Source: an uncultured virus (IMG/VR IMGVR_UViG_3300031329_000004)
Lineage: Duplodnaviria > Heunggongvirae > Uroviricota > Caudoviricetes
DNA length: 64,000 bases
Direction: 5' to 3' (one strand)
Virus record (IMG/VR): IMGVR_UViG_3300031329_000004
Position numbers and translations under genes: made by a program. The first letter of the stretch is position 1. Every line of letters starts with the position of its first letter. A model generated the notes under the pieces. It saw only the letters and a list, made by a program, of their open reading frames with translations. It searched no databases and had not been told where the DNA came from. Positions 3 through 50,442 of the stretch are shown here, in pieces.

Positions 3-3000
3 AAAAAACCTTTCAGTTTATTTAGGTGAAGTAATATGTGGGAATCAATGGATAAAGCTAAAGAAACTAATAAGTCATATAGAAATTCTATTTATGAACT
101 TAAACTTGAAAAATGAGATGATGTATCATATCAAGATATATTAAATATAGAAGATAAGTATAAACCAGAATGATTTAAAGATAATTTTACACATATTATT
201 TGAAATACTCTATTAAGTACAAATAACTCAGTAGACTCTATTAAAGAAACTGATGTAAAAAAGATTCGTGACATATATAAGTCTGAATGAATTAATACTT
301 GAGATTTTACTAATAAAATTAAAAATCTATTCCAGAGTTGAGATAATCAAATAAAATCTGATATAGATTCTGCTATTAAAGCAGAAGCAGACTACATGAG
401 ATTACTTACTAATAATTCAACTCTTACAGAACAGAATTTAAATGATTATGATTATTACAATAAGATATTAAACGAAACAGATATTCCTGCTAAAATTATT
501 GCAGATGATTATTCTTTTATGGAATGATATCAAGAAATGGTGAATTACTATTGAGAGAACTTAGCTAAAGAAAAAATAAAAAAAGATAATGATGAATATA
601 TAAAAGAAATACTTTTATTAAATGAGTTTGTTAAAAAAATCTGAAATACAATAGATTGATTAAATGATACATTTAAAGTTGATGTATCATGAATATGATC
701 ATGAACTTTTGTAGATAAATCCAAAACAGATATTACATGAAAAGAATTACTATTAAAAATAAACAAACTAAAAGATGTAAATGATAAAGCAATCGAAGCT
801 GCAACATGAATGAATAGAGATGAATATAATAAAGTAAATGAGATAGCTGATAGGAATACTGAAATCTGATCTTTTGATTTAATAACCACAAATGCCCTTA
901 AAGAATCAAAAGAAGTAAAAGATCAAATGATTCAATATGAATATCTATGATGATCAGAAAGAAGTACTAAACAATCAGAAATAATACAAGAGATTATAAC
1001 AAAGAATACTTTTGATAGTATAGAAAATAATATTTCTGATATTGATCAAAAAAATAGTGTATCTCAAATAAAAAACAATTATCTAGATGCAAAACAAACA
1101 TTAAATAGATTTAATGATAACGTAAGTAGAACTTACTATAGCAAAGTAAGTCAATGACTTTATCCAGACTTGCCAGAAAAAGAATGAAAAGAAGAAGTAA
1201 CTGAATTACTATTTAATCAATTAGAAGACTCTGAAAAAAGATTAATAAGACAATGACTAGATACTGTTTCTTATTCAAGTGCATTTATGCAAATAGCAAG
1301 ATGAAAGGACAATATGTCTTCGTGACTAAAAGAAATGGATATAGCAAAAGCTGCTCTATGAACCTGGAACTTTTTATCATGATTTACTGCTGTTGCATTT
1401 GAAACATGATGAGAGATAATTGAATCTTGAATAAAAAAAGATGATAAATTATTATGAGATGTAAAGTCATATAATTCATGATATATTAATGCAAATGAAT
1501 GAATTGTTGAATCTATGAAAAATATAGCAACAAATGATTTAGATGCTGTTATTACTGGTATATGATCAATATTATTAAATCCAAATAAAACATCTGTATT
1601 AAAATCATGAAGTTATATATGAAGATTAAATCAAGTAAATTCTCAACTTGAAGCTATTCAAGAAACATATAATAAAACATCAAAAACATCTAAAGTTATT
1701 AATAAATTAATTACTTGAAAAAAACTTAATTCAAGAGAACAAAATATTGTAAATAAAAATACTCAGATACTGAACCTTTCAAAAGAAAGATATGATATTG
1801 TTAATAATACAAAATATATAAGTGAGGTATCTAAATCAAAAGATTTTATAGATTGAAAGGATACTGAAAATATTATTGAAAAAATGAGGTTCTTTAATGA
1901 AACTAACTCATTAGCAAATAAAACAACTAAATTCATATGATTTCAGACCGATAGTATACTTACTTGATTCAGAGCTGATGCAGGTATCAATCAAGCACTA
2001 TGAGTGACTGTAGATGACCAAGTAGTGAAAGAGGACTTTTTCTTTAATATAATATGAGATACTATAATGTGATCTGTTGCTTTATGATTTTGAAAAAAAT
2101 TATTTAAACATGACCAAGAAGTTTCTGATATAATGAAAACACTTCCTTGAAATAAAGAATTATCAGAATGAATAAATCTGATTCAAAGAAGAATGTATGA
2201 TTTAAATGGATGAATAGTTATTAGTAAATCAGAGACACTAAATATATTAAAATCTAGTATGAGTGTACTAGGTTCTTTTTCGTCTAAGTCTGCAAGACTA
2301 GATAACTTTGATAACATAATAAAATTTACTGATGATGTATTATGAATGTCTCCTAAATCTAGCAATTCAGTAACTGACTCATGAATAATTATATCATTTA
2401 ATGATAATCTTTCTAAGTTTATAGATCAAAATAAAAGACTATCTTACTTCAATGACTTGTATAATAAAGCATTATCTAGTAAATCTCCTAGTAAATCTAA
2501 GAATGTAAATTTTTATAAAGCAAAAATAGAGCAGGAATTAAATCTTATAGAAGCATTATCTGCATCTGTAGCTAAAAAAGAAAAACTACTTTCTAAATTT
2601 AAACAAAATAAATCATCATACATGTGATGAACACTTAATATAGAGTCTAAGAATTTACAAGCTGAGATATATAAAAGTTTAGATATTAAGATTAATAAAC
2701 TTAAGAAGAATTTAAAATGAAATAAAAAAGTAGATACAAAAGACTTAATGAATTATCTTGAAGAAACTATATCAGAATATGATGAGTCATTTAAAGGCTG
2801 AAGAAAAATAACAATGTATGATACATATACATGACAAGAAATAATCATTGATGAAAAACAATATATAATACAGTCTAAGGCTTTATCTGAAAGAGAATGA
2901 ATATCTCTTAATGAAGCAAAAGAAAAAATATTAAAATCATGATGAATGTCTATTAACATGGATATGGTTTATGCTGATATAAAAGACTGATTATGAAATT

Positions 3001-6000
3001 ACAAAAGAATATATTGATTTTCTGATAAACAATTAATCAAAACAATCGAAAATAATTATGGGATAAAGATATCAAGTTTAGATATAACTACAACAAAAGA
3101 GATAAATAAAATTCAAAATTTTACTGAATGAAATTCTAAAGCTTCAAAAGTAAATAAAGATTTTTGAAGTACTATTGAAATTAGTCATCAATCTAAAACC
3201 AAATTTAATGCATCATTTTCTAAATGATCTTTTGATATTAAAAAAATAAAAGAATATATTTCTTCTTATTCTGATGAATCTAATCCTTTAAATATAAAAA
3301 AGTGAGTAGAGGAATTAAATAAAGAAATATCAAAACTCATTGATGATGTTGAAGTTACTGAAGCCATGATTATTTCTAAGATAGAATCAAATACTCCTAG
3401 ATTATTATTATCATGATCTACTATATTTTCTATAAATACTAAAGAATTACTTTCTTCTAATAGTGAATTTAAGTTAATGGATGAGGCAGCTCAAGAAAGT
3501 ATTTGAATAAAACTCAATAATATAATATCTTGATTCGAAGTAAAATACTACAATGATATTTTACAAAAAGAATTATGAGATTCTGTAGTATGAAAAACTA
3601 CATCATTATGACATTGATCAAAACCATATAAAGAAGTTTTAAAAGAAACATCATTAGGTAACAAACTCATCACCTTAACTCATTGAAGTACATTCAAGCA
3701 TCATGATGATAATTGGAATGAGATTATTTACATAATGCCATCTGGGTGATTAAAAAATAAAAAAGAATTTTCTCTGTCATACAAAAATGCTGTTGTTAAT
3801 ATGGATAAGAAAATGTCTGCTACTGCTGTATTTAAACCACTAAGAGAATATGCATTAAGTGTAATCACTGACCTGTGACGAATAAAAGAATATAGATGAA
3901 TAAATGATAATCTAGCAACTTATTATGATATAGCATCTGAAGATAATAAATTTAATTACCTATCATACATAAATGATTTATTTAAAGATTCTTCTAAGCA
4001 AGGATCAAAGAATATAGAAGAGGTTAAATCTATTATATCTTATTTAAAAAATAATATACTTGATGGTTGAGAGACTGAAATTGATATTGCTATTACAAAA
4101 AACTTTATTCATAATTTATTCTTAAATAAAAAATGAGTAGATTCTTTTATTCAAAACTATAGTGCTACAGATAACAATGCATTAGCATTAAGAAATATAT
4201 TATTATCTGATACATCATTAACTTGAATAATAAATAAGAAAACAAGTAACGCTATTGAGAAAGCAGATAATAAAATTATAGAAGATTTAATCAAAAAAAC
4301 TTATAACGAAGAAAAGTTTAAATTTGATTCAATATCTACTTTATCTCAATCAGAAATAAATAATTTAAGATTAAGGATTAAAAAAGCAAGAGATGATAAT
4401 TCTTCTGCTTCTACTTTGTTAGAACTTAATAATAAATTGAAGACACTTATAGGATATAAATCTAAAGAAAAATTTATTTCTTTTTCTGATTATAGAAAAA
4501 ATAATATTGGTATAGCATTATACCAAGACTTTTATAACAAAGTTCAATCTAAAATTATTAATGATGCAAATAAGTTTACTCATCAATCAATAAATAAAAG
4601 AAAAGCCGAAGCTAAAAAACTTATAAAATTAAATAAACTTTCTGTTAAAGAAAGGAATAGAATAGCAAAAGAACTGCAAGCATATTCTGATTTATGAGAT
4701 AATTTAGACATAACAAAACAGATAGAAAAATTATATCTGAATAAGTCTAAAGCAAATGTAGTTATAAAAGAACACAGAAAGGCTCTTAAAGCTCTTGAAA
4801 ATACATTAGGTAGTAATGTATCAGATGATGAAAAGTATCGTCTTATGGATGATTATATGATGTTAAATCAAAAAGAATTAGATGACATGTATATCCTCCT
4901 CAATAAAATTGATTCTATAGTTGTTCCTTGAAAACCTAAAAAACCTAAAGAATCTAATTTAAAAGACTTTCCAGAACAAGTATATTTAGATGTAAGTGAC
5001 AATGATCTCAAATCATTAAGATCTGAACTTGTAAAAACTATTTCTAATATAGAAAAGTCTTTCAATAAGATAAGAGAAATAGATAGTTTAAAAGAAACTA
5101 ATTCATTCAAATATTCTATAGAAGAAATTAAAAAAGTTTCTGAAGAAATTGAAGAACTAAAATTAACGAATGAATCCTTTAATGATTTATATTCTAGTAT
5201 TAAAGTACATATAGATAATGGTAGTGATATAAAAGACTTAAGATTTCAAAACACAGCAGCAGATGAAATCACATATGTTATAAATTGAAATACAGAAACT
5301 ATAAGCTTCTGATGAAATTTATCTCCTAAACAAGTAGATGCTTTAACTTCTATACTAAGAAAGATAGAAAAAAATAATGCTTGAGTTACGTGACTTAAAT
5401 TAGATATAGAAGAAATATCATCAATATGAGATGATATACTTCAAGAGTCTGAAGTATCAACTGTTATATATAAAGATATAACAGATTCATTATTTTTAAA
5501 TTACACCTTACGAGATGAACATTCTATAATTGACTCTGCTTTTAAAGATGCATATTCTAAGAATGTAGATTGAGTTCAAAATTTTTCATGAAGAGAACTT
5601 ATGTGAATGCTTTATAAAAAAGAATGAAGTGATTTTAGAAAATTTATAGATTCACTCTATGTGACAGATATATCTAAAATAGAATCTTACTCTAAAAAGT
5701 TTGAAGTATTCTTAGAAGATATATTAAAAAACTCAGAGTATTCATACAGATGAATAGACTGAGTTATTACTACCTTAAAATGAAAAGATATAATTCCACT
5801 TATAGATATAAAAAAACTAAAAAATAGATTTGCTAATATAAGAAATCAAGACAATGGCGAAGCTGTTTTAAAAATGTCTAGCTGAATTAACTCAAAATGA
5901 TTTTTGGAATTTGAATATTGATCAACTCAATTTTTAGATCTTCCTATTATTTATAGGAATATCAAAGAATCTAAATGAACTTCTATTTCTAAAAACCTTA

Positions 6001-9000
6001 GATATATAGATTGATTTTCTATAAAGAATTTATCTAGATTCATGAAAACTGCTGATTCTATTAAATTCATGAAAAAAGAACAAAGAGTTATTTTTGATGA
6101 ACTTACTAAAAAGAATTATATTTGAATAATTAATTGAACTGATTTTCCAGAAAATTTCTCTTCTGGTTGAAAAAAAATCTGATGATATTGATTATCTCAA
6201 AAACTCAGATCTAATCTAAAATTACAAGAATGAGAAATACTAGGTTTATGATTCTGAAATAAAGATGGCTTTACTTTTGTATATAAAAATACAGATATAG
6301 ATTTTTCTTGAGTTTCTTATCAAGATAGAATGAAAATAACAGAGCTCGCATATTTTTATGATATGTGAATAAATGCTTGATTCATTAATATAGATATTTC
6401 TGAAGCTAGAAATTTATGGAAATCATTTATAAAAGATTTTAATTCATCTTCTAAAAAAGATTTTGATTCATTTCAAAAATATCTTTTTGAGTATAAATGA
6501 AAAAAAAGTAAATTAAAATTAACAGATATTATGTCTGGTTCAAAACCAGATAAAGATCTAACTGATTTTGAGTCTTGAAAGAAATCATTCAAATCTAGTT
6601 CTGACAACATTAAAAAAAGATTAAGTAGTTCTTCTTCTACTAAGAATTTATTTCAATGATATAAATGAGAAAAAGCTATATACGATTGAGATATTAGTAG
6701 TTACTTAAAATCTAATTGATTAAAAACTGTAATCATAGATGAAGTAAAAGAAGATTGATTACTATCAATCATGGCACAATGAAAAAATAATAAAGAAAAA
6801 ATTTCTTTATTTAAAGAGTATGCAAACAATCCAGAAAGATTATGGAACATAGATAAAATTATTAATAAACCAATGGATGATTGATCTGAATTAACAGATG
6901 AGTACATCCTAAAAAGAATTGATAGATATTATTTATCTGACTACGAAGATGGAACTTGATATGCAACTCGTGATATATGAAAAATAAATAAACTCATTAA
7001 TAATTGAAGTGATACTATAATAAAAACTCATATACAATGAACATCAGAAAATTGAAAAGTTAATTTATGAAAATGATTAATCAATACTTTTAATATAAAA
7101 CATAATTGAAGTGACTTATCAGAAACATTAATTATCTGAAAATGAATGCATAAAATAAAATGAGATTATTTAGATTTAAGTTCAGAAAAACACACTATAG
7201 AAATAAACTGAAAAATGTATAATGTTATATGAATAGATGATAATGTAGATTACTCTTATTTTAAAGAAGCAACAAGCACATCAGCTAAGACTAAAGAAAT
7301 GGTTTCTATAGATAGTATTATCTGAGCATTCGATCAAATATATGTTGATGCATTCCATGATCTCACTAAAAATAAAATAACAGATCTTGTTAAAAACTTT
7401 GAAAAAACATATATATCTGATGGTGAATTACCAAGTCTTTATTGAGACTTAAATAGAATTATTAAAAAGCTTTATGAAACAAGAGATGAGATTCAGTACT
7501 CAGATCAATATTTTAAAAACAAGTTTAATCAGTTATTTTCTGATATAAAAAATGTTATTGAAGAAACAAGAACTGAATGATATTGATTTAAATCTTTTAA
7601 ATTGGATCCTAATCTACATCCTGATACTGTAAAAATACATCCTGAGAATCCTCTATATAAAAAGATAGAAAAAGAATTTGAGTGAGACAATAAATATATT
7701 GTTATAACGAGAGCTCCTGTATCTGATAGATATGTAAGTGGTTTATATAAAATAGTATTAGATGATACTATGGATAAAAAGCATATAAAGGTTCATCCAG
7801 AAACTGGTTTAGATAAACTAAGACTTGATCATGATGGTGACACTGTAACAGCATATAATCCAAAGAAAGAATATGGTTCTATATTAACAAGAGCTGTTTA
7901 TTGAAACGCTCAATTATTATCTCCTAATGACATAGTAGATGGTAAGAAACTTATTGATATGAATGATGATGAGTTTTTTACTCATATAGATAATAATTAT
8001 GATTTTGAAAATTGAGTAAGACTTAATGATTATATTGAAGCAAAAGAGGTAGATGAACTTACAGGTGAAGTAAGTAATGAATATACATCATTTATAAGTA
8101 AAACTCTTATAGCTCAACAAGCTGATAAAGATATATCTATTTGAGCATCTTCTGTAAGAACTGCTGATATAATGAATAGATCAGTACAAAGAATAGTAAG
8201 AGCTTGAAGTAATAAAGCTAATATCGAATTTAGCAAACTAAATCCAGATGTACAACGTGCAATATTAAAATGATATTTATGAAAAGATATTCATGATATA
8301 CATATATATGAATCTATTATTAGTTGAGATCAATCTAAGTTTATTGATCAATTAAATAAAGAATGAATGCCATGAGGAAAATATTTTATTGATGGGAAAA
8401 ATAAATATTCTATTACTAGAATGTTTAACGAAATAAAAAGCAAAGCATGAAAAGAAATATTTTTAAAAAAAGTTAAATATAATTTAACTAATAATAAATG
8501 AATTACTCTACCATTAGGAACATCAATAAGACAAATAAATTTAGAGCATAGAAAGCTATCTAATTTTAGATTAACACAAGAAGATTTAGAAAAACTATCT
8601 TTAGTAAAACAAGATAAAAGATTTGCTGTAGAATGATGAGAAGTCCTCAATACATTCTTTGATTTCGCTAAGTCATGAAAAGATTTTATCCCAGAAGACT
8701 TTGATAGAAAAATGGTTGAGCTTATGTTTCCTTGAGTTGATTATGAGAAGATTTCTCCATACCTAGAAAACATAAGTAAATGAAACAAAGTTCAATGGAA
8801 GTATTGAGTTAATATAACGGACCCACAATTCCAAAGAATTTTAAGTGACGATGTTTCTTGAGATATATCTTCCTTATGGAAGTTTGCTCATGACTCTTTA
8901 AATGATTATTTAAAAATTCAAGCTGCATCAAATGAAATTCCATTTCTTTTAAAGAAATATAAAGAATATTTATCTCCAGAAGAAATAAATACTTTTGATG

Positions 9001-12000
9001 AAATATTTTATAATAAGTGACTTGATGTATGAAGTCAGAAAGTAATTAATAGTATTATAGAAAACAATAAATCAATCAGTGAAATAATGTTTGCTAAAAC
9101 TTGAAGTCATATTGATTCTATTTCTTACTTAACCAATAAACAAAAAGAAAACTTATATGAGCATATAAAAAATAAAATACCTAAAGAAATTAAAGATACA
9201 TATATAGAAATATCTACATATCAAGATTTAAAAAAGAACACAAAGAAGTTTTTCAATCAGGTATTAAAACTTAGAGAAAAATGAACTGATGAAGATATTA
9301 TATATATGACGTTATTTATAAAGACTCTAAGTGCAGATTTCAATAAAACAATGAAGACTCATAACACTAATAATGTATCTATTCAAAATACAATGAATGA
9401 TAATATTATAAAACAATATATTGAATCTACTGTATGAGTAAAAGAATCTATTATTAAAAATAGTTTTAAGAACTTAGATATAGATACAAAGAATGAATAT
9501 CTAGAAAAGCTTTCGTACATTTCAGATAATTTAAATAAACAAATACAAAAAAAGAATACATATATTAGTGAGATAAAAGATAAATTTAAAATTAGTTCTC
9601 AAGATTTAGATATTGAATATCAAGATAATGTAAAACTTTTAGATGAGTCTTATAATGATTTATTAAACAAAAGTCTTGAGCTTGAAAAAATGAATCAATC
9701 TAAAAAATCTTATTTTATAAAAAAAGAAAAATACGATTCTGATTTAAAAAAGTATTACGATTCTAAAAAAGAATTAGAAAAAACTTATTCACTTAATAAA
9801 AGAGAAGTAAAAGAATACGAAGATATGATTTTAGAAATAAGTCGTATTAAAATAGAAGAATCAAATCTTATTAAAGAAGCTCAGTCTATACTATGAACAA
9901 CTACTTCTTCTAAAGAAGATATTGCTAAATTATTAAAAGACAGAATAGGTGAATTAGATGCTAATATAGAAAGATGATCAGACGAGTTTTTATTAGAATT
10001 AAAGCTATGACAAGAGAATATAATTTTAGATTGAGATTCATATAAGATAATTTCTTGAGATGAAACAAAATCTTATAAAAGAGTTTCTGATTATACTAAT
10101 GCTAAATTTATTGCTAAAGATAAAAAGCTACTTAAATACTCTTCTGATATATGAAGATGAGCTGAAGCCTTAATTAGAGATGTGTTTAATAATAAGAAAA
10201 AAGTAAATCTTTTAGATTATCCAGGATTAAAAACATTTAAAACTGAAAAATCATTTAAAGAATTTATATCTGAGATAAAAAGATTACGAGAAGATTTTTC
10301 AAAAAAATGAGAAGTTTTATATTCAAAAGATATAAAGGTAAAGGATGATGTATTATGACTTGCATGAGAAGTTAATCTTGTGACTAAAACAAAAGATGGT
10401 AAATATAAACTTTATGATATAAAGACAGTTCGAGATACATCATTTTATGATTTAAATGTTTCTAAAATAAATGAAAATAAATGAAATCAACTTAGTATGT
10501 ATTCTAATATTATAGAAAGAAATTATAAGATTGATTCTAACCCAGTAGTTATAGATGAGATTAATGTTATTATTTTTAAAGCTAATTATGATGAATGAAT
10601 TAACTCTATTAGTTATTCTGAAATAATTCCTATAAATAAAAAGAATAGTGTTTCTGAAATAAATGATGACTTATTATCTAACTGAATAATTAATACTGAG
10701 GAAATACTCAGCCCATCTTTATGATATGACGAAAAAATAAAAACTATATCTAGGTATATTCAAAATACTAACACTCAAATTAAATCTTTAAATAAACAAA
10801 TAGATAAAAAAGAATTAAAGATGTCTGAAACATTAGTAGAAATTTGAAATATCATTAAAAAAGATTTATCAAATATTAATCCTAGAAATGTATTAGATTA
10901 TAAAAATTCAGACATTAAGGAATTACTTGCTCGTAAAAACAAAGTAGATGAGCTATACAGAGAGGTAGATGCATTAGAGGGGGTAACTACCACTAAAACT
11001 AAAATGAAAGCTCTAGTAAAGAAAAAATGATGAATGCTTGTACAATCAGATATAAAATCTCCTATTATTTGAGATATAAAAGATTCTTATGCTTGATGGT
11101 CATGAAAAATGTCTGAAGAGATAATTAATGATTTGAAGTGAGTGACTGATACATATAAAAAAATGTGGGACTTTCAATATATAGATCAGATTCAAAGATT
11201 AGATCCTGAGTTTTTAAATAGAATAAATGCTATATCTTTTCATATGTGAAATGATTTTAAAGTATTTAATAAAGCAGCAACTCAATGGGACTCTATAATA
11301 TCAGAATTAGATAAATGACTTGCTGACATAAACATTTCTTGAATATGAAAGATAAAACAAACATTTAATTTAATAAAAAGTAAAATAACTCCTAACTCAG
11401 ATAGCTCTCATAATATCTGAAGAAAGTTAAAAGAGTCTATTAACCAGGCACTTATTTGAGAATGAGGAGAAATAATTTTCTCTTTAGAAAAAATGAAAAA
11501 ATTATTTAAAGAAAAGATAGTTTCCTTAAATCAAACTAACCTTGTATATGATGAGTTTATTTGAAACGATAAAGAATTAATTAGTATGTTGTCTTTAGCT
11601 TTTCCAGATTTAAAGAAATCTGAATTGACTGTATGACATATTCATTACATATATTTATCTCAAAATAAAAAGTTAAATACTAATATAGATACCTACATAA
11701 ATGAAACAGTAAGTTATTCTGTTGCTAAATTAAATACATTAGATTCTGTTGTATGAGAACCATTACAATTACTTCAAAAATATTCAGGTTCAAATAGTCC
11801 CAATAGAAGCTTCTGATGGAAAGAAAATCAACACTCTTCTTTATTATTAGATGATATAATTGAGTCAGCTAAATGAGATCATAACTTAGCTATTATTAGT
11901 TTAGGAATATCCAATATAGATGACTTCAAAAAAAGACTTATGGATAAATGATTCACTGAGAATCAAGCACTTACACTATATAGTGAATTATATAAAAAAG

Positions 12001-15000
12001 ATAATTCAACTGGTCAAAGATTCTTTGATTTACTTAATGGTATTAATTATATGATTAAGTATTGATATGCTAATACATTGCATTATGCAGGTACAATATC
12101 TGCTACTATTCAAATGCCATGACAGTACACTGAGATAATGACTCGTAAGTGATCTTTCTGATGAATATCAGATATAGAAATTTCAAAGATAAGAGCAAAC
12201 ACTAAGGTTATGAAATGAGAAGATACTCATATATTTGCATCTGGTATAGCTTTGCAAAACAATGACAACCCCTTTGCTAATTTTTGATCTGATTTTATTT
12301 CTAATCAATTCTTTAAATTAGATAATTTTATTGAAAAGAAGTATGGTATTGATACAGGTTTATGAATGAAAGTAAGATGAACTATAGATTTATTTACAAA
12401 TCCATTATGAAAGCAAGATGCTCCATTTGATAATATAAGAAAAGATGCAGCAATAAAACAAGCAATGTTTGAAAGTTGATATAAAACTTATGAAGATTTA
12501 ATACTCTCTGTAGATAAATTTTGAAAATGAGAAATGATTCGATTTGAAACAAAAGCTCGTATGATTTATAATGAATTATGAGGATGAGTATCATCTAAAG
12601 ATTCGTTATATAAAATAAATAAATTATTCAATTTACATTGATATTCTAATAAAGAAGATATGTCATGATTTGCTGCAATGGCTATGAGATCTTGGCAGAA
12701 CCTTTGAGGATATTTAGCTCATTGGATGGCAAATAAAACAATGAGAAATGTTGAGATAATTCAAAAACTTACAAGAGCAGCAGCTCATGGTGACCTGGAA
12801 GCTATATGACAACTTACAAGAGTTTCACTTTCAAGAGCCAGGAACATTGCTTACATTGCTACTATGTGACTTAAGTATGATAAACTTCAAGATATAGATA
12901 CTACTAAAAGAGATTGACCATTAGCTCTTGTAACTACATTAGCTAACGATGTTGTATGAGTATTAGCATTTACATGATTTGCTATACAAGCTCATGAAAG
13001 ATCAATACTTATGGATGCGTGACTATGAGAAGAATCATTAATAATGTTACAATCATTTACTTGAAGATTTACAGGTTCATTAAATGTAGTACCTAATCTT
13101 ATAGATAGTTTATACTCTCAGTTAGTTTTAAAGAATTGGAATAAAATGTCTATATGAGAAAAGAACTTATTTATTATTGAAGCTGTTATGCAAACAATAA
13201 AAGATAATGGATGAAACTTTAATAGATATTCATGAGTAAATAAAAGTGAATACTGAGAATGAAATATATGATTTTCATATAGTTCTATTACATGACAATG
13301 AGTATGATGACAAAAATGAAAGATAGATTCTGATTTATGGTTAGATAACTCTACCCAGAAAGATATAATCGCATTAAGATCCGAGTGATGGATACCATAT
13401 CTAAAACATATTAGTAAAGCATTAATTTGAGATAGATTATTTAAGAACAATGTAACCTATGAAAATAGGCTCTCAGCAGAACAATATGTTTCATTGAGGT
13501 CTAGTATAGCTCTTAAAGAAATAGATGATGCTATGCTTTGATTATCTGATACTAATTGAGTATTTAATGTATTACATTGAGATAGATATTCTAATCCTGA
13601 AGATATTATAACATTCAAAGTTCAATGAAAAGATAAAGAGGTACATAGAAATGATGTTATACTTATGAATGCTTTTAATTCTTATTACTTTGCAAATGGT
13701 AAGTTGTGACTTGAAAAACTTAATCCCGATGGAAGTAAGAACTGAGTCACTGATAAAGAAGAAGCTGCAAGAAGAAATATAATGAAAGATACATTCTGAG
13801 ATTTAAGTATTCCGTATAATATCTATATAGAAAATTGATGAGTTCAAAAGTTTGATCAATGGGTATATGAAAGAATAGTTTCTATGTGACTTAATTCAGA
13901 AGAATGAAATATAATGTTATGAGAACACGAAGTGGCTATTCCTGAAATAACTGATTATATTATAGATAATGAATTTAGTAATAAAAAGAAACAATATCTT
14001 ATAGACACTTATTGAAAAGATCACTATTACAAATGATATGATTATGATGATATACCAGATGTAGAAGAAATGATTATGAAAATTAATATCTATAAGAACA
14101 TGCCAGAATTAATATCACTTGATAGATGAATAAAACGAGTTGCTGATGGTGTTGCATTGTATTTAGATGAAACCATACAGGAATCTGTTTATAAATCATC
14201 ATGAGCTTATTTACCTATCATGTGGAAAGACGAAGACAATGAAATGTTCGATCAAGATAATATGTTATTAACGTGACAGGTTGATGTAGATAAATATCCT
14301 CAATCTAAAGAAAGTCATAAAGTCTGATATAGGATAAAACAAAGACTAGAAAATAAACTCAAAGAAGATGATCTTACAGAGTACATGATTTCCAAATGAG
14401 AAACGTGAGAATTAAGTAGCTCTTTAAAAGTACTTTCTAATACATCTAGAGATGCTTGAACATTAACAAAAACATTTGATAAGATTAAATCAAGAATGAC
14501 AGATAAAGAATTTGCTAATTTCAACTTGCAGTTTTTAGATTCTATGAACTCTAATATAGCGAAGAAGTTACATTGAAGCAAATTTATGGAAAACCTTAAA
14601 GAATCTTGATTGGTATCTGAATATGTTAATTATATGTACGCCATTACAGATTCTATAAAAGATTATGATCCTGAAGAATCGTGAACTGGTAAAAGCTGAG
14701 ATTACATATGAAGTAGTTTTAATTGATTCTCAAGATACACATGACAGAATCAATGATATAAATGAAACTATTGAACATTTTCTAATGGGCAATGACTAGC
14801 ATCAGAGTATCAGCCTATAATAAAATATGTTAATGACAATAGAGATATGCTGTATGATAATCCACATAAAGTTATTCAATCTTATATAGCAGATATTCCT
14901 TTTATTCCAACAAGAGCTTGATTAAAAATCGCAGATTATATTCTTCCAAGAATAAAAGAATTAAAGATTTCTCCATCTTGAAATGTTATTAAAGAAACTG

Positions 15001-15158
15001 GTGGTTCAATATATGTAAAAGATAATGTGACTTACAAAAAAATTAAAAAAATTTCTAAGATACGAGTAAGACAATCTAAAGTTAGAAGTAGAATTAAATA
15101 TTCTAGGAAAACTAAGAATCTACTCAGTGGTTTAGTATATGGAAAACAAGACTTCTAA
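3..15158 (+). CDS. Giant virion/ejection polyprotein (>5,050 aa, 5'-truncated by the window) containing a two-barrel DNA-dependent RNA polymerase and a degenerate PD-(D/E)XK domain
   Basis: One frame (positions divisible by 3) is open with TGA=Gly at every line I spot-checked; I did not check every codon. It contains track ORFs 4416 and 9690 and ends TAA at 15156-15158. Motifs: VITRAP (7701), KVHP..LRLDHDGDT (DHDGD at 7827-7841), EDGTG (6945), LGKGL (7065), YDIKT/QLSMY (10413/10488). Confidence 0.88.
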
Positions 15159-21143: not shown

Positions 21144-22565
21144 ATGGACAGAAAAAACCAACCAGGTCAATATGGTGCAGATGTAAATGTTACAGATTTT
21201 CTAAACGAACTTTGTAAAAGACCATCTGCAAATATCACTGCAATGAATGAAGACGAAATGTCAGAGCTTACACTTCTAGGTTTTGATATCACTGAAGATA
21301 CATTTCAAGGTAAAGGTCAACTCGGTATTTCTCAATACGGTGACAGACTTAATCTTCCTATGAAAAGTATCAAGGAAAAAAATATGTTTAAAGTTTTCTC
21401 TGGTCAACAGTTAGATCTTATAAACAACAAAGTTACAGTGACTGAGTTTGCAAATGATGCATCTCAAGTAGAAGCTGTTTCTGCAATTACTTCTGCTAAC
21501 TCTGGTGAGTTCTCAGATGTATCTGGATTCCAAGCTACTGATGTAGTACTTATTGTAAAAGGATCTGCAGCTAGTGCTACAGTACCTGCTAAAGTAAAGA
21601 TTACTGATGTTGATCAAGAAACTGGTGTAATTACTTTTGATACAAATGTAACTATTGCTCAAGGTGATTATATTGAATATATAACTACTGATGCATTCGG
21701 TTGTCAAAATAACACAAAAGGTGTTGCTCAGAACTCTGAAAAAGCTAAATCATTTACTTATAATACTCAGTTCTTCTCTCGTGAAGCAAAGGTTGATCTT
21801 TCTGATTTCAACAAAGTATTCGCAAAAGAATCACAACAGTATGAAGCATTTACATATGACTTCTATGGTAAACCTACTCAAGAACTTTATTCTGAGGTTG
21901 CAAAATCTTTCAGACATGGTTCTGGTATCACAGGTGCTTCACCTAAGATTAAAGGGTACGATACTATTATCGAAGAAAGAGATGCTGCAGGTCTAGAATC
22001 TATTATAGATTTTACTGGTATAACTGGTACTGAAGCTGAAAAAGCTGATAAACACCAAAAGAAAATTGAAGATATTCTTTACAGAGTAAATCAATCTCCT
22101 GTAAAATCTAAGTTTGTTCTTATTGGTAATTCTCGATTCCATAGAGCATATAAAAATATGATGCAAGAACTTAGAGGTGAAGCAGAAGCAAGAGCTACTG
22201 GTCAACTCTTTGATACTATCCATGATGGTATAATGAAATGGAATGTAGAGGAAGCTCCTATGGTAGATTTCTACCTATCTAGACAACTATCTAGAGAGCA
22301 AGCATATGCAGGTCGAGCATATATTCTTCCTAAAGATCTTATTGCAGGATTTACTCCTAAATGGTCTGAAGTAGAAATGAAAGGAAATGGAAGTATTGCT
22401 CCTAAAGCTGCTGTATTTGGTGCTGTTAATACTAGAGAAAAAGTTGGACAGGCTACTGCTGAGTGTAGAGTATACGAACATTATATGAGACTAGGATTCA
22501 TATTTGCAGGTGTATCATACAGAGATACATACTTCAGAATTGATGACTTTAACTTCGGTCTATAG
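21144..22565 (+). CDS. Major capsid protein (probable HK97 fold)
   Basis: 473 aa after the scaffold; YNTQFFSREAKV segment resembles SU10/P22-like capsid proteins; strong codon bias, no TGA codon; followed by a terminator. Confidence 0.85.
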   Translation: MDRKNQPGQYGADVNVTDFLNELCKRPSANITAMNEDEMSELTLLGFDITEDTFQGKGQLGISQYGDRLNLPMKSIKEKNMFKVFSGQQLDLINNKVTVTEFANDASQVEAVSAITSANSGEFSDVSGFQATDVVLIVKGSAASATVPAKVKITDVDQETGVITFDTNVTIAQGDYIEYITTDAFGCQNNTKGVAQNSEKAKSFTYNTQFFSREAKVDLSDFNKVFAKESQQYEAFTYDFYGKPTQELYSEVAKSFRHGSGITGASPKIKGYDTIIEERDAAGLESIIDFTGITGTEAEKADKHQKKIEDILYRVNQSPVKSKFVLIGNSRFHRAYKNMMQELRGEAEARATGQLFDTIHDGIMKWNVEEAPMVDFYLSRQLSREQAYAGRAYILPKDLIAGFTPKWSEVEMKGNGSIAPKAAVFGAVNTREKVGQATAECRVYEHYMRLGFIFAGVSYRDTYFRIDDFNFGL

Positions 22566-23290: not shown

Positions 23291-25053
23291 TCGAATTTAA
23301 TAAACAGCTTAAGATTGGTACTACCAATGTTGAGTACGAAAAAATTTTTAATTGTAGAGTTATAGATCCTACATATGAAAAATGAAAATGATTATATAAT
23401 TCTGAATTTTTTCTGGATAAAAGATTTTGAATGAAAGAATTTGTTATTGATAATTTTCATTATACGGATGATATAAAAATATACTCTAAGACTTATTTTT
23501 TATATAGAAATAATTCTTCTATATTTGTTTGAGTAAAAACTCCTACATGAATAAAAAGTATAGCAGGTCCATTTGCTTATGACAGAAGAAATCCTATTCG
23601 ATTTTCTGAATGAAGATGAGCAAATGGAATCCGAAAAGAATTTAATGTTTCTGTTTCTAATTGAGCTACAATAGATAATACTAACTTAGTTATAAATGAA
23701 GATTGAGTTTACGAAGATTGATATATAACTTTAGATGTTTGAACTTGATTAAATATAGAAGCTTGAGATTATGTATTATTCAAATCATGAATATATGCGT
23801 GAGCTACTATAAGAGTTGATTTATATCAAGATGGAAAAATATATATCATAGGAATCAATTCTAGGGGGTCTATCCCAATAGATTGAGACAACATAGATAT
23901 ATACTCCGAATCTTGAAAAGTTCCTCTTATAGGTACAAGAGAATGACTTTTAGCAATACATATAAATTGAGATAATTCTTGTGACCATACAAATATACTT
24001 ACTTGAAATATTGATGATGTTGTAAGATTCAACTGAGAAATATTTGTTTTGAAGTGAGATGTTGTATATTTTTCTCGAAGTACATTCGATGACAACTTAC
24101 AATTTTATAAATCAGCAGATAGGAAAAGAGTAAGATGAGCTTATAAACTTATTCCAAAATGAGGATATCTTCTTGTTATGTGAGATGATAATAGATTAGT
24201 GTCACCACAAAATGATGAATACTCTTTCTTTCCTCTGAATTATAGTTCAGAGCTTTATAGTAAATACTCTTATATATTTACTGATTCAACTTTGTACATT
24301 ATACAATCTGATAGAGAAATTGCTAAAATAGATATTACAAGTAATGATTCAGTTTCGTTTAATCTTACTGTGACTCCTATAACAGATACAGTAAAATGAT
24401 TACTAGATGATATAGATAACTTTAATTCTTTTGATAAATGAGAAATCTATGTTAATAGAAATAAAAATGATAGAAGAATACATTTTCTATATGTAAGACA
24501 ATCATGAGATACATTAGAGTATGAATACGATATGGAATACCAACACTGGTTACTTAATACTTATACTCGAACTATTTATAAAATATCAGAACAATATCTA
24601 TGTAATGGATCTGTTTCAGATATTTCTGGATATACAGATCTTTGAGAAGAGTATAAACAATCTATAAACTTTACTATTCAAATTCCTAATTTAATTACAA
24701 AAGTATGATTACTTAGAATGATTATGTGAGTTTCTAATGAGTTTAATTTAGAATATGATGTTGATATAGATGTTGAATCTAGTCACTCTCTTACTAAAAG
24801 AAAGTTAAAAATAAAGAGTGTGGCTTTAGATACAATGCCGGTTGACCATAGTTTAGACATGCTTAATGTACTCATGAACTGAAAGGACAATAAACATGAT
24901 TGAAATATAGCATCAGTGCAAAGAACAATTATGATGTCCGGTAGGTATCACAGATATAACATAAACTCTAAAAATAGATTTATATATTGATATTCTTATG
25001 TCCTATGAGTTCCATCTAATATATTTGTGAATGAAAGAAACTTTAGTTTTTAA
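23275..25053 (+). CDS. Probable tail nozzle / tubular B-like beta-rich protein
   Basis: 592 aa, beta-strand rich, follows the adaptor as in podoviral gene order; includes track ORF 24199. Confidence 0.6.
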
Positions 25054-38002: not shown

Positions 38003-38008
38003 ACATTA

Positions 38009-38075
38009 AAACTCTTGAGTCGTGCCAAGAGTTTCTGCGTTTTACCTATACAGGTAAGACGCATTTTATTTTTTA
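38009..38075 (+). terminator. Tandem hairpins / terminator
   Basis: aaactcttg/caagagttt (38009-38034) and tgcgttttacct/aggtaagacgca (38036-38063) followed by a T-rich run. Confidence 0.7.
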
Positions 38076-38239
38076 AAAAAACTTTTTTTTTATTGAGTGA
38101 TACACTATAGTATAAATAGTACTGGTTTCTGAATCTATTTAGTTCTCTTCTTTAGAAGTTTTTCTATTTTTCTTGTACTACATTTCTTATGAATAAAGGT
38201 ATATAAATATATAGAGCAGAAAAATTTTGAAAAAAAAAT

Positions 38240-38404
38240 TTGCGTGTCACGATAAAAAGATTAAAGTCTTTGAGATGAATAAAAGTCCCTGCACTTCTAA
38301 TACATCAACCTAAGCTTTGGCGAGTACTTAGGTCTGCCAAAGCACCTACAGCTACTCAAAGGACTTAGGAAAAAATACTTGCTACTCGTTAGCAGGTATT
38401 TTTT
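38240..38404 (+). promoter_or_regulatory. Promoter, structured leader RNA and terminator upstream of the replication module
   Basis: TTGCGT-N16-TAAAGT; several alternative stems; terminator aaaaaatacttgcta/tagcaggtatttttt. Confidence 0.55.
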
Positions 38405-38419
38405 ATTTTAAATATAAAT

Positions 38420-38929
38420 ATGAATCAAGAATTACTAGAGCAATTACTCAGTGAGTTTCCTCGCATAGATCAATCTGCTATGTTTTCTATTCTTCGTTCT
38501 ATAAAAGCAAGAAGTGATACATATAAATTGATATGATTGTCACGACTAGAGTGTGACAAATACTGAATAAGTCAGAGACAGATGCATAATCTTATTCAAT
38601 ATCTTAAAGATTACTGATATATATCATATGAAAGAAAAACACTGCCTAAGTGAAAAGTTCACCTATGCTGCATGTATTCTTTATCTGATATCTTTAGTAA
38701 TTTTTTATTTGATTTATTTAATAAAGTAAAAAAAGTATATCAAAGAATTGATGTTATTGCTTTTATAAAGCAAAATTTTAATCATAAAAAAACTATTTGA
38801 TTTATTACTTTTAAATATTCATGAATAAAATATAGAGTAAATTTATTCTGAAGATATAAACATATGATATATGATACCCGGAATAACTGTATTATTAATC
38901 CCATAACAACATTCAATGTCTACAATTAA
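38420..38929 (+). CDS. Winged-HTH DNA-binding protein (possible replication or transcription regulator)
   Basis: CDKYGISQRQMHNLIQYLKDYGYI HTH pattern. Confidence 0.6.
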
Positions 38930-49361: not shown

Positions 49362-49742
49362 ATGCCTATTAATATCTTATCTTATGATTATAAAGTAGAT
49401 AATATAATAACTCTTCTTTCTGTTATAGAGAAATCATCTAAAGATATTTTAGATATAAAATATCCATGATCATCTGTAATAACAAGATTAGTTATTTTAT
49501 GATTCAGTATGGATTTAAATTCTGAATCTATCAAGTCGTGACTTTCTCTTATAAGAAAACATTCAATAGAAAGACAAGACTTATTTGTAAAATATTTTTA
49601 TAAAGAACCTAGCTATGAAGAATTTAAAAAAACTTTATTATCGGATGATCATACTATGGTAGATTTCTTTATAGATATTCATATATGATCTTCTTGAGAT
49701 GTACTATTTCCAGAACCCGAAATAAAAATAATGAAAACTAAG
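49362..49742 (+). CDS. Hypothetical protein
   Basis: 126-aa code-25 ORF. Confidence 0.6.
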
Positions 49743-49745
49743 TAG

Positions 49746-49980
49746 TTGATTTATTATCAATATAATATATATTCTTATTGTCATCATCTAGAATCACTAT
49801 GATGTGACACCAACAGAGGAGAGACCCTATATGCGACATAATGTATTCCGGTCCATCGCAAAGCACAACAGAAAGCAATATGCTCTGATTGTTGCTAAGA
49901 TGAAAGGAGGTGATCGAATCTAAACGATAGGCTAACCCCCTATCATAACTTGCCGGAGATTTATTCTCTGGCTTTTTTTT
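49746..49980 (+). other. Stand-alone small transcription unit: promoter, structured RNA and/or 30-aa basic peptide (49831-49923), terminator
   Basis: TTGATT-N16-TATATT; higher GC; GAGGA upstream of MRHNVFRSIAKHNRKQYALIVAKMKGGDRI; GAAAGGAGGTGATC at 49902-49915; terminator gccggaga/tctctggc plus T8. Confidence 0.6.
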
Positions 49981-49992
49981 AATTATCTTTTC

Positions 49993-50442
49993 ATGAAAAC
50001 ATATCCTACTCAATTTGAAAAAAATAATCCTAAATATAAACCATGAGAATTATTCTGAAAAAACATCATACTCAAAGCTGTAAACTCTAAGATTGTTTAT
50101 ATTAAATGCTGAGAATGTTGATGTGAAATAAGAAGAAGAGCTGATAGATTATCTCATCAATATTGTAAATATTGTAGATATAAGTATGTGGCTTATGAAT
50201 ATATATATTGAATCCCAAGACATACTATAGCTGCAAGAGTAAATAAAAAATATTCAATTAATGAATGTTTATGACTTACTCCAAGATTCCATAGTTTACC
50301 AAAAGAAACATTTAATCAATATGACTTAAATTATTTATATAAAAATAATGAAAGTGAATATTGATTTACAAAAACACTTTGAATTAAGTGTGACATAAAA
50401 CATAAACTTATTTCTATAATAAATCTACCATGAGAGAAGTAA
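49993..50442 (+). CDS. Cys-rich (CxxC...CxxC) zinc-finger protein
   Basis: CGECGC...YCKYC, then an HTH-like YGIPRHTIAARVNK segment. Confidence 0.6.

Follow-up and report, generated by a model that had tools for sequence, protein, structure and literature searches.

A candidate rre-like small RNA gene with an over-long Shine-Dalgarno sequence in a phage of TGA=Gly bacteria

A Shine-Dalgarno (SD)-like sequence without a start codon is known from the cry3A mRNA of Bacillus thuringiensis, where this element, STAB-SD, is proposed to bind the 30S subunit and to stabilise the RNA. In Alphaproteobacteria, the rreB and rreR genes have been reported to give free-standing mRNAs of about 165 nt, which show weak translation and binding to 30S subunits (Hahn et al. 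2016, PMC5711450). The rre genes contain a 16-17 nt complement of 16S rRNA that has as its last base the G belonging to the start codon, GTG or rarely ATG, of a conserved ORF of 14 or 18 codons (PMC5711450). An extended SD has also been reported in the SD-blind Bacteroidia, where rpsU (bS21) of the Flavobacteriales is the one strongly SD-led gene (PMC9976891, PMC13000453). Here we describe an intergenic element of a phage, the closest published kin of which would appear, judging from its parts, to be the rreB/rreR small mRNAs (Rfam CC2171).

The DNA analysed is a stretch of 64,000 nt from an uncultured virus, referred to here as the window. When TGA was read as a sense codon, its ORFs formed a near-continuous row of genes on the + strand; all 67 ORFs of at least 70 codons lie on this strand, and ORF 36-15158 (5040 aa) contains 266 TGA codons. 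Under table 11 only 20 ORFs of at least 100 aa were obtained, and reading TAG or TAA as sense gave no comparable continuous gene row in the window. The code was assigned to table 25 because the Walker A and methyltransferase motifs, for example GKNGTGKST, are correct only with TGA = Gly. PHROGs and Pfam searches of the window returned a tail fibre, an endolysin/amidase, DnaB, an SbcC-like protein and a DNA methylase, and these phage genes together with the TGA=Gly reading identify the window as DNA of a phage whose host reads TGA as Gly. No tRNA or tmRNA was found in the window. Ten salt-lake DNA runs, and no RNA run among those listed, contain the stretch, and contig pieces from four salt-lake runs were identical to the window, showing neither variants nor ends. 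Scans of IMG/VR for relatives of the phage with a 22-mer, four single proteins and a back-translated invariant peptide returned none; a metagenome scan with alignment A1 gave 31 generic Walker-A loci without TGA recoding, and profile A1 matched 0 of 401 genomes of the class sampled within the Patescibacteria. The protein database contains relatives of the neighbouring SbcC-like protein at 53% (P0002) and 46% (P0003). The 473-aa gene at 21144-22565, which belongs to the structural block and has no family match, is free of TGA codons, every other long gene having 5-45. The long gap 38003-38419 holds two back-to-back terminator-like hairpins (38009-38063) and then a G+C-richer structured stretch (38277-38404), which has a 15-bp hairpin at its end, directly before the gene at 38420.

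The element under study occupies the 247-nt gap 49746-49992 between ORFs 49362-49745 and 49993-50442, and all of its parts are on the + strand. It opens with a promoter-like sequence, TTGATT-N16-TATATT (49746-49773; 9/12 matches in a consensus scan), followed by a hairpin at the predicted transcript start (49779-49809), for which the minimum free energy (MFE) fold gives the helices 49779-49783/49805-49809, 49785-49788/49801-49804 and 49789-49791/49797-49799. An SD sequence, GAGGAG (SD1, 49816-49821), stands 9 nt before the ATG at 49831 of a 30-codon ORF, which with its TAA spans 49831-49923 and encodes the basic peptide MRHNVFRSIAKHNRKQYALIVAKMKGGDRI; no other ORF of the window has an SD core ahead of its start. 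The ORF contains an internal hairpin (49862-49896, MFE helices 49862-49872/49884-49896) and, 6 nt before its TAA, the sequence GAAAGGAGGTGATC (SD2, 49902-49915), which is complementary over 14 nt to the canonical 16S 3' tail and behind which there is no ATG, GTG or TTG at SD distance. The linker GAATCTAAAC (49916-49925) leads into a hairpin of the MFE fold with the arms GATAGG/CCTATC (49926-49944), the loop and 3' arm of which contain the anti-SD-like ACCCCCT (49935-49941); in an alternative local fold SD2 pairs with this C-rich ACCCCCT, at -11.9 kcal/mol for 49899-49948. A terminator scan located an intrinsic terminator at 49952-49980, with an 8-bp stem (49952-49972) including five G-C pairs and a T8 run, and the promoter-like site and this strong terminator would together enclose about 200 nt. 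The ATG of the next gene (49993-50442; 149 aa, with a four-Cys motif and no family match) lies 13 nt after the T-run.

The SD2 14-mer is present in one copy in the window, with no copies at one or two mismatches; its base composition would lead one to expect about 1.3e-4 copies. The element region has a G+C content of 0.44 against a window mean of 0.28, which ties for the highest of any 120-nt stretch in the 64 kb, and its folding energy of -55.7 kcal/mol (z = -3.4) was equalled by 1 of 200 shuffles. Two terminator-like sites were found in 2.8 kb, with 0.6 expected. Promoter-like sites numbered 14 against 22.8 expected in shuffles, so that the promoter call is not significant alone; the cellular look-alikes described below have TTGAC(A/T/G) boxes at a relative place matching that of the phage site. 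The 14-mer and the anatomy of the element are a real, non-chance feature. An SD core (GGAG, GAGG or AGGA) at -20 to -3 was found in none of the 67 + strand ORFs read with TGA as sense. Since the phage and its likely host group are without SD use, the two strong SDs within this single gap fall outside routine translation signalling. The first-pass annotation had listed a promoter, a 5' hairpin, GAGGA with a 30-codon basic ORF, SD2 just before the stop with no start codon after it, a second hairpin and a terminator, and had seen other genes without SD motifs; our analysis reproduced these observations at the same positions, with the reservation already made for the promoter. As for described families, Rfam at the gathering threshold returned 0 matches in the whole window and, at E values up to 10, only chance-level matches in 49600-50100, and a blastn search of the element region against INPHARED gave only short AT-rich matches.

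The comparison with rreB/rreR shows a common plan, consisting of an autonomous small transcript (predicted in the phage) that has a promoter and a terminator to itself, a very long 16S complement and a tiny ORF, in a genomic context that is not conserved, between orders in the case of rre and among the cellular look-alikes here. The published rre RNA co-sediments with 30S. The phage complement measures 14 nt and fits the canonical tail only, whereas that of the rre genes measures 16-17 nt and fits their own 16S; SD2 lies 3'-terminally in a separate ORF that has an SD in front of it, without a canonical start behind SD2; the look-alike peptides are unconserved, while the rre small protein is conserved within its clade; and the element is carried by a phage whose TGA=Gly host group does not belong to the Alphaproteobacteria. 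By the start-codon feature that defines the published rre family, the phage element falls outside it. The consensus of the Rfam model RF01867 (CC2171, a Caulobacter sRNA) begins ..GAAAGGAGGUGAUCCAGUGUCUC and ends in a terminator, and viral look-alikes align to these parts; the phage element, however, stays below the gathering threshold of 75 bits, and the viral loci are without the middle section of about 90 nt of the model. STAB-SD differs in its location, being in the 5' leader of a long mRNA, whereas SD2 lies near the 3' end of a mini-transcript. In the rpsU case ordinary genes are, as in our phage, without SD, and the state of the 16S tail is read through an extended SD kept at a single locus; that SD drives a ribosomal protein gene in an autoregulatory loop, whereas no protein gene stands behind SD2.

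Cellular look-alikes were found in Patescibacteria. A 12-mer search of the 401 genomes of the class matched 137 genomes, many matches being the complement of the 16S gene end, and 8 of the 130 inspected 12-mer places showed the part order of the phage element (G332, G052, G084, G145, G437, G305, G452 and G031). A unit in G450 was found by synteny, upstream of dinG; the order of G084 (70 of about 140 places) yielded further units in G906, G973, G975 and G504 together with an ORF-less variant in G926; and a phylum-level pattern, matching 10/401 genomes versus 1/401 for a reversed control, gave units in G632, G538 and probably G603. Free-standing units are present in at least 16 Patescibacteria genomes, SD-less code-25 ones included (G603 counting as probable only). 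Their parts are arranged as a TTGAC-type promoter, SD1, a short ORF, (G/C)A(A/G)AGGAGGTGATC, a linker, a hairpin and a terminator, and the phage element shows all parts in the same order (SD1, short ORF, extended SD, linker, hairpin, terminator). In the cellular units SD1 lies 7-9 nt before an ATG or GTG, and the ORFs, of 9-55 codons and encoding unrelated peptides, have their stop at SD2 or close to it, the frame being one of three.

The SD2 14-mer is identical in G052, G084, G145, G437, G305, G452, G031 and G906 and is found also in G975, which equals G145 across the 175 nt compared; this invariance is partly ascertainment, because the cellular and viral units were found with SD2-containing patterns. 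The linker xAATCTAAxC is common to the phage element, G906 and the viral locus L466, the G906 (CAATCTAATC) and L466 (CAATCTAAAG) linkers after the same 14-mer both being near-identical to that of the phage. Pairing of the post-linker hairpin is kept in the cellular units by compensatory changes, as in CTAATAAGA/TCTTATTAG, CTGGTAGA/TCTACCAG and CTGATAGA/TCTATCAG. No neighbouring gene is conserved among the units, which often point away from their neighbours, and their distribution is patchy (at least 9 or 10 of the 204 genomes in the order of G084, and 3 of 30 dinG-upstream regions). A covariance model, R1, made from the three nearest cellular units, G084, G145 and G450, did not recognise the phage element, giving 10.8 bits for 49855-49964 (E 4.4, rank 17 of 43); the distance from ATG to SD2 is 71 nt in the phage ORF versus 28 nt in the model. 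Eight cellular units had no Rfam match at E up to 0.1, and no description of such units in Patescibacteria or phages was found in the literature excerpts consulted. A second non-stop ORF after the hairpin was discarded as a component, being confined to three close cellular members and absent from the phage.

The pairing partner was evaluated by locating TGA=Gly genomes via a recoded GTPase motif and reading their 16S 3' tails directly. In the order of G001 (records titled Absconditicoccaceae/Absconditabacteria) the tails vary widely and CCUCC is kept in 1 of 30; in the order of G084, whose DinG homologues mostly contain 17-47 in-frame TGA codons and in several cases 0-10, none of nine tails has CCUCC, eight of them reading GGACTATCTCCTT and one GGACTACCTCTTT. 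The code-25 genome G035 keeps CCUCC in its tail, GGATCACCTCCC, and its genes are still without SD. G084, G145 and G052 are likewise code-25 and SD-less, with SD cores upstream of 1/13, 0/14 and 0/20 genes respectively. The predicted energy of the duplex between SD2 and the tail is -24.7 kcal/mol for the canonical tail, -18.4 kcal/mol for that of G035, -11.6 kcal/mol for the G084-type tail GGACUAUCUCCUU and -8.7 to -11.6 kcal/mol for the tails in the order of G001, and the sampled code-25 lineages, as candidate hosts, offer at best 9-10 contiguous pairs. The first-pass annotation had held that SD2 complements the conserved 16S tail and had named the host tail as the point to confirm: full complementarity holds for the canonical tail and is reduced in the sampled code-25 orders (29/30 and 9/9 tails without CCUCC), so that the host evidence goes partly against the claim, with divergence in both orders but CCUCC kept in G035. 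As the candidate host tails have diverged, the pairing would be weaker than had been assumed, and the perfect 14-nt complement exists for the canonical tail only. A tail-adapted SD2 (AAGGAGATAGTC followed by TATCT) was found in 0 of 181 genomes. In two SR1 genomes, SDs are reported to be scarce (2-7% of genes) and CCUCC to be missing from the 16S ends (PMC10783764), and bS21 is reported to be frequently absent from Gracilibacteria and Absconditabacteria (PMC9297842). Within the order of G001 (L042, L043, L074-L101) the last 12-15 bases of 16S differ between genomes, for example ACCATCCTAA, ACCATTCTAA, ACCACCCTAA, ACCTTTCTA and ATCTCTTAAC, as if the tail were no longer selected. As a separate observation, G035, a TGA=Gly genome, has two adjacent class II synthetase genes (L117 4556-7389), of the family that includes glycyl-tRNA synthetase, the first of them without a match to an anticodon-binding domain.

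The arrangement of SD2, anti-SD and hairpin extends to other viruses. The pattern GAAAGGAGGTGATC N1-4 TATCT was found in at least 80 IMG/VR stretches, 62 of them distinct among the matches listed, where a rough estimate gives about 3 by chance; these loci were selected with the 14-mer, the identity of which is accordingly a product of selection. The 62 distinct loci among the matches listed have G+C contents from 0.32 to 0.68; five of them show a canonical start codon at SD distance and 33 a T-run within 80 nt. An ORF of at least 60 codons ends within 8 nt of the motif in 34 of 64 loci (the 62 and two more), a count which is biased because the motif itself supplies TGA in two frames. In the viral loci UAUCUCC can pair back onto GGAGGUG, at -5.4 to -7.8 kcal/mol. 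With the Rfam CC2171 model, 10 of 20 viral loci gave sub-threshold scores of 20-36 bits (gathering 75), aligned on GAAAGGAGGUGAUCCAGU and the terminator. A 50-nt query of INPHARED matched 184 records, 170 of which are Pseudomonas phages carrying GGAGGTGATCCAGTATCTCCC; the Pseudomonas phage records among the matches listed share 23 nt at 100% in unannotated DNA. The viral look-alikes L395 and L388 had no match in INPHARED. In phage JG004, AGGAGGTGATCCAGTATCTCCC (L467 701-723; record 24281-24303) falls within the tRNA cluster, in a gap without annotation between tRNA-Asp and tRNA-Cys. The excerpts consulted of a Pseudomonas phage transcriptome paper (PMC10914365) make no mention of such an RNA.

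On these grounds we tentatively read the gap as a self-contained rre-like small RNA gene, that is a mini-mRNA with an over-long SD that would dock on 30S subunits, and we give this reading slightly less than an even chance. The promoter would produce a transcript of about 200 nt ending at its own terminator, and SD1 would direct ribosomes to translate the short frame, the sequence of the peptide being immaterial. SD2 might pair with the 16S 3' tail and, with no start codon available, a 30S subunit or a terminating ribosome would dock without initiating. At rest SD2 would be partly masked by the anti-SD ACCCCCT, and translation of the short frame would unmask it. Most likely, the phage copy would titrate or mark ribosomes, or stabilise its own RNA via ribosome binding, and the cellular counterparts presumably have roles in ribosome titration or marking or in RNA stabilisation. 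A broader proposal, which we consider unlikely, is that transcripts of phages and Patescibacteria share a general 3'-end module, not described before, in which an extended SD, the internal anti-SD next to it and a hairpin or terminator stand at or just after the stop, and which captures the small subunit or mimics the SD-anti-SD helix; the likely host tail being non-canonical, the RNA would then have a target other than the docking of host mRNA. A factor recognising the SD-anti-SD helix, or the ribosomes of a bacterium hosting the tiny host cell, are possible alternative targets.

Several other explanations were weighed against an rre-like small RNA gene. The 30-aa basic peptide might itself be the product, with SD1 as ribosome binding site and SD2 as a by-product or a 3' stabiliser: SD1 is well positioned, the 30 codons are open up to a frame end 6 nt past SD2, and an SD-led short ORF is found in every cellular look-alike. 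However, the codon log-odds of the ORF (-0.15) are lower than the 5th percentile (0.087) for 250 windows of 30 codons taken from real genes, its GC3 is 0.43 versus 0.17 in phage genes, and it has no family match, Pfam having returned nothing for a 39-aa GTG-extended form that contains it or for a 50-aa alternative frame. In addition, the look-alike peptides, of 9-55 codons, have no common sequence and occupy three frames relative to SD2, which argues for selection on RNA and not on protein, so a small protein gene has in our judgement a low probability. The same lack of conservation and varying frame speak against an arrest or leader peptide, one of three options offered by the first-pass annotation. 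Another of them, a type I toxin-antitoxin-like unit, would agree with a small ORF in a structured, insulated transcript, but the peptide is hydrophilic, with 9 basic residues (5 K, 4 R), 2 His and no hydrophobic span or membrane helix, and the look-alike peptides are mutually unrelated. Six minus-strand promoter-like sites within about 250 nt downstream (second hexamers 50033-50330) are all weak (9/12), in a region where such sites are, as given above, fewer than in shuffles, and a toxin unit is very improbable. The third option, a ribosome-sequestering or pausing RNA, fits best, because the start-less extended SD is the only invariant part of the look-alikes and rre mRNAs bind 30S.

Leader-peptide attenuators and the short pR'-tR' transcript of phage lambda are models for a different explanation, in which the gap is a cis-acting leader for 49993-50442 and its terminator is read through upon translation of the leader ORF or by an antiterminator. 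Only 13 nt separate the end of the terminator from the next ATG, all genes are co-directional, alternative pairings of SD2 exist, and a second structured terminator-like leader precedes the gene at 38420. Against this, the cellular look-alikes are free-standing, with no conserved downstream gene and often pointing away from their neighbours; neither the MFE nor the centroid fold contains an antiterminator helix competing with 49952-49972, and attenuation needs no 14-nt 16S complement. We regard a leader function as improbable. Captured or decaying foreign DNA, either the gene start of an SD-user or a host rre-like gene without function in the phage, would explain a G+C content of 0.44 in a genome of 0.28, a codon usage that looks foreign and an SD2 that fits the canonical tail better than the sampled code-25 tails. 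The unit is nonetheless intact as a whole (promoter-like site, SD1, ORF, SD2, masked hairpin and terminator), gives a more stable fold than 199 of 200 shuffles and shows an order of parts that recurs in many genomes, which makes a functionless remnant quite unlikely. Two more candidates were rejected, namely a prfB-like frameshift site, as TGA is a sense codon in code-25 cells and the frame is not constant, and a role of SD2 in starting the next gene, which is 78 nt distant.

If the reading as an rre-like small RNA gene is correct, bacteria and phages that ignore SDs still retain one RNA with a giant SD, and docking of this RNA on ribosomes without a protein would offer a direct handle on ribosome counting, parking and hijacking. 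The occurrence of the core in 62 distinct uncultured viral contigs (among the matches listed), as well as in a phage of TGA=Gly bacteria, suggests a wider reach, and its presence in well-studied Pseudomonas phages makes an rre RNA function testable in tractable phage-host pairs. The element also sharpens the question of why the 16S tail is conserved or drifting in lineages without SD-led initiation.

Two further observations concern the surroundings of the units. Upstream of dinG in G513 (L270) and G372 (L272), the strong promoter box GTAAACTTGA.. precedes different inserts of 150-200 nt in close relatives; the same box drives the SD-rich unit in G084, G145 and G450, and one of the L270/L272 inserts has its own terminator, so that this position resembles a slot in which small RNA genes can be swapped. 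Finally, small Cys-rich ORFs end at the extended SD in L335 (G906; ..CPGYCPICPKC..) and in the IMG/VR locus L466 (..CFWC..CSDRC..), and the gene following the phage unit has its four-Cys motif.
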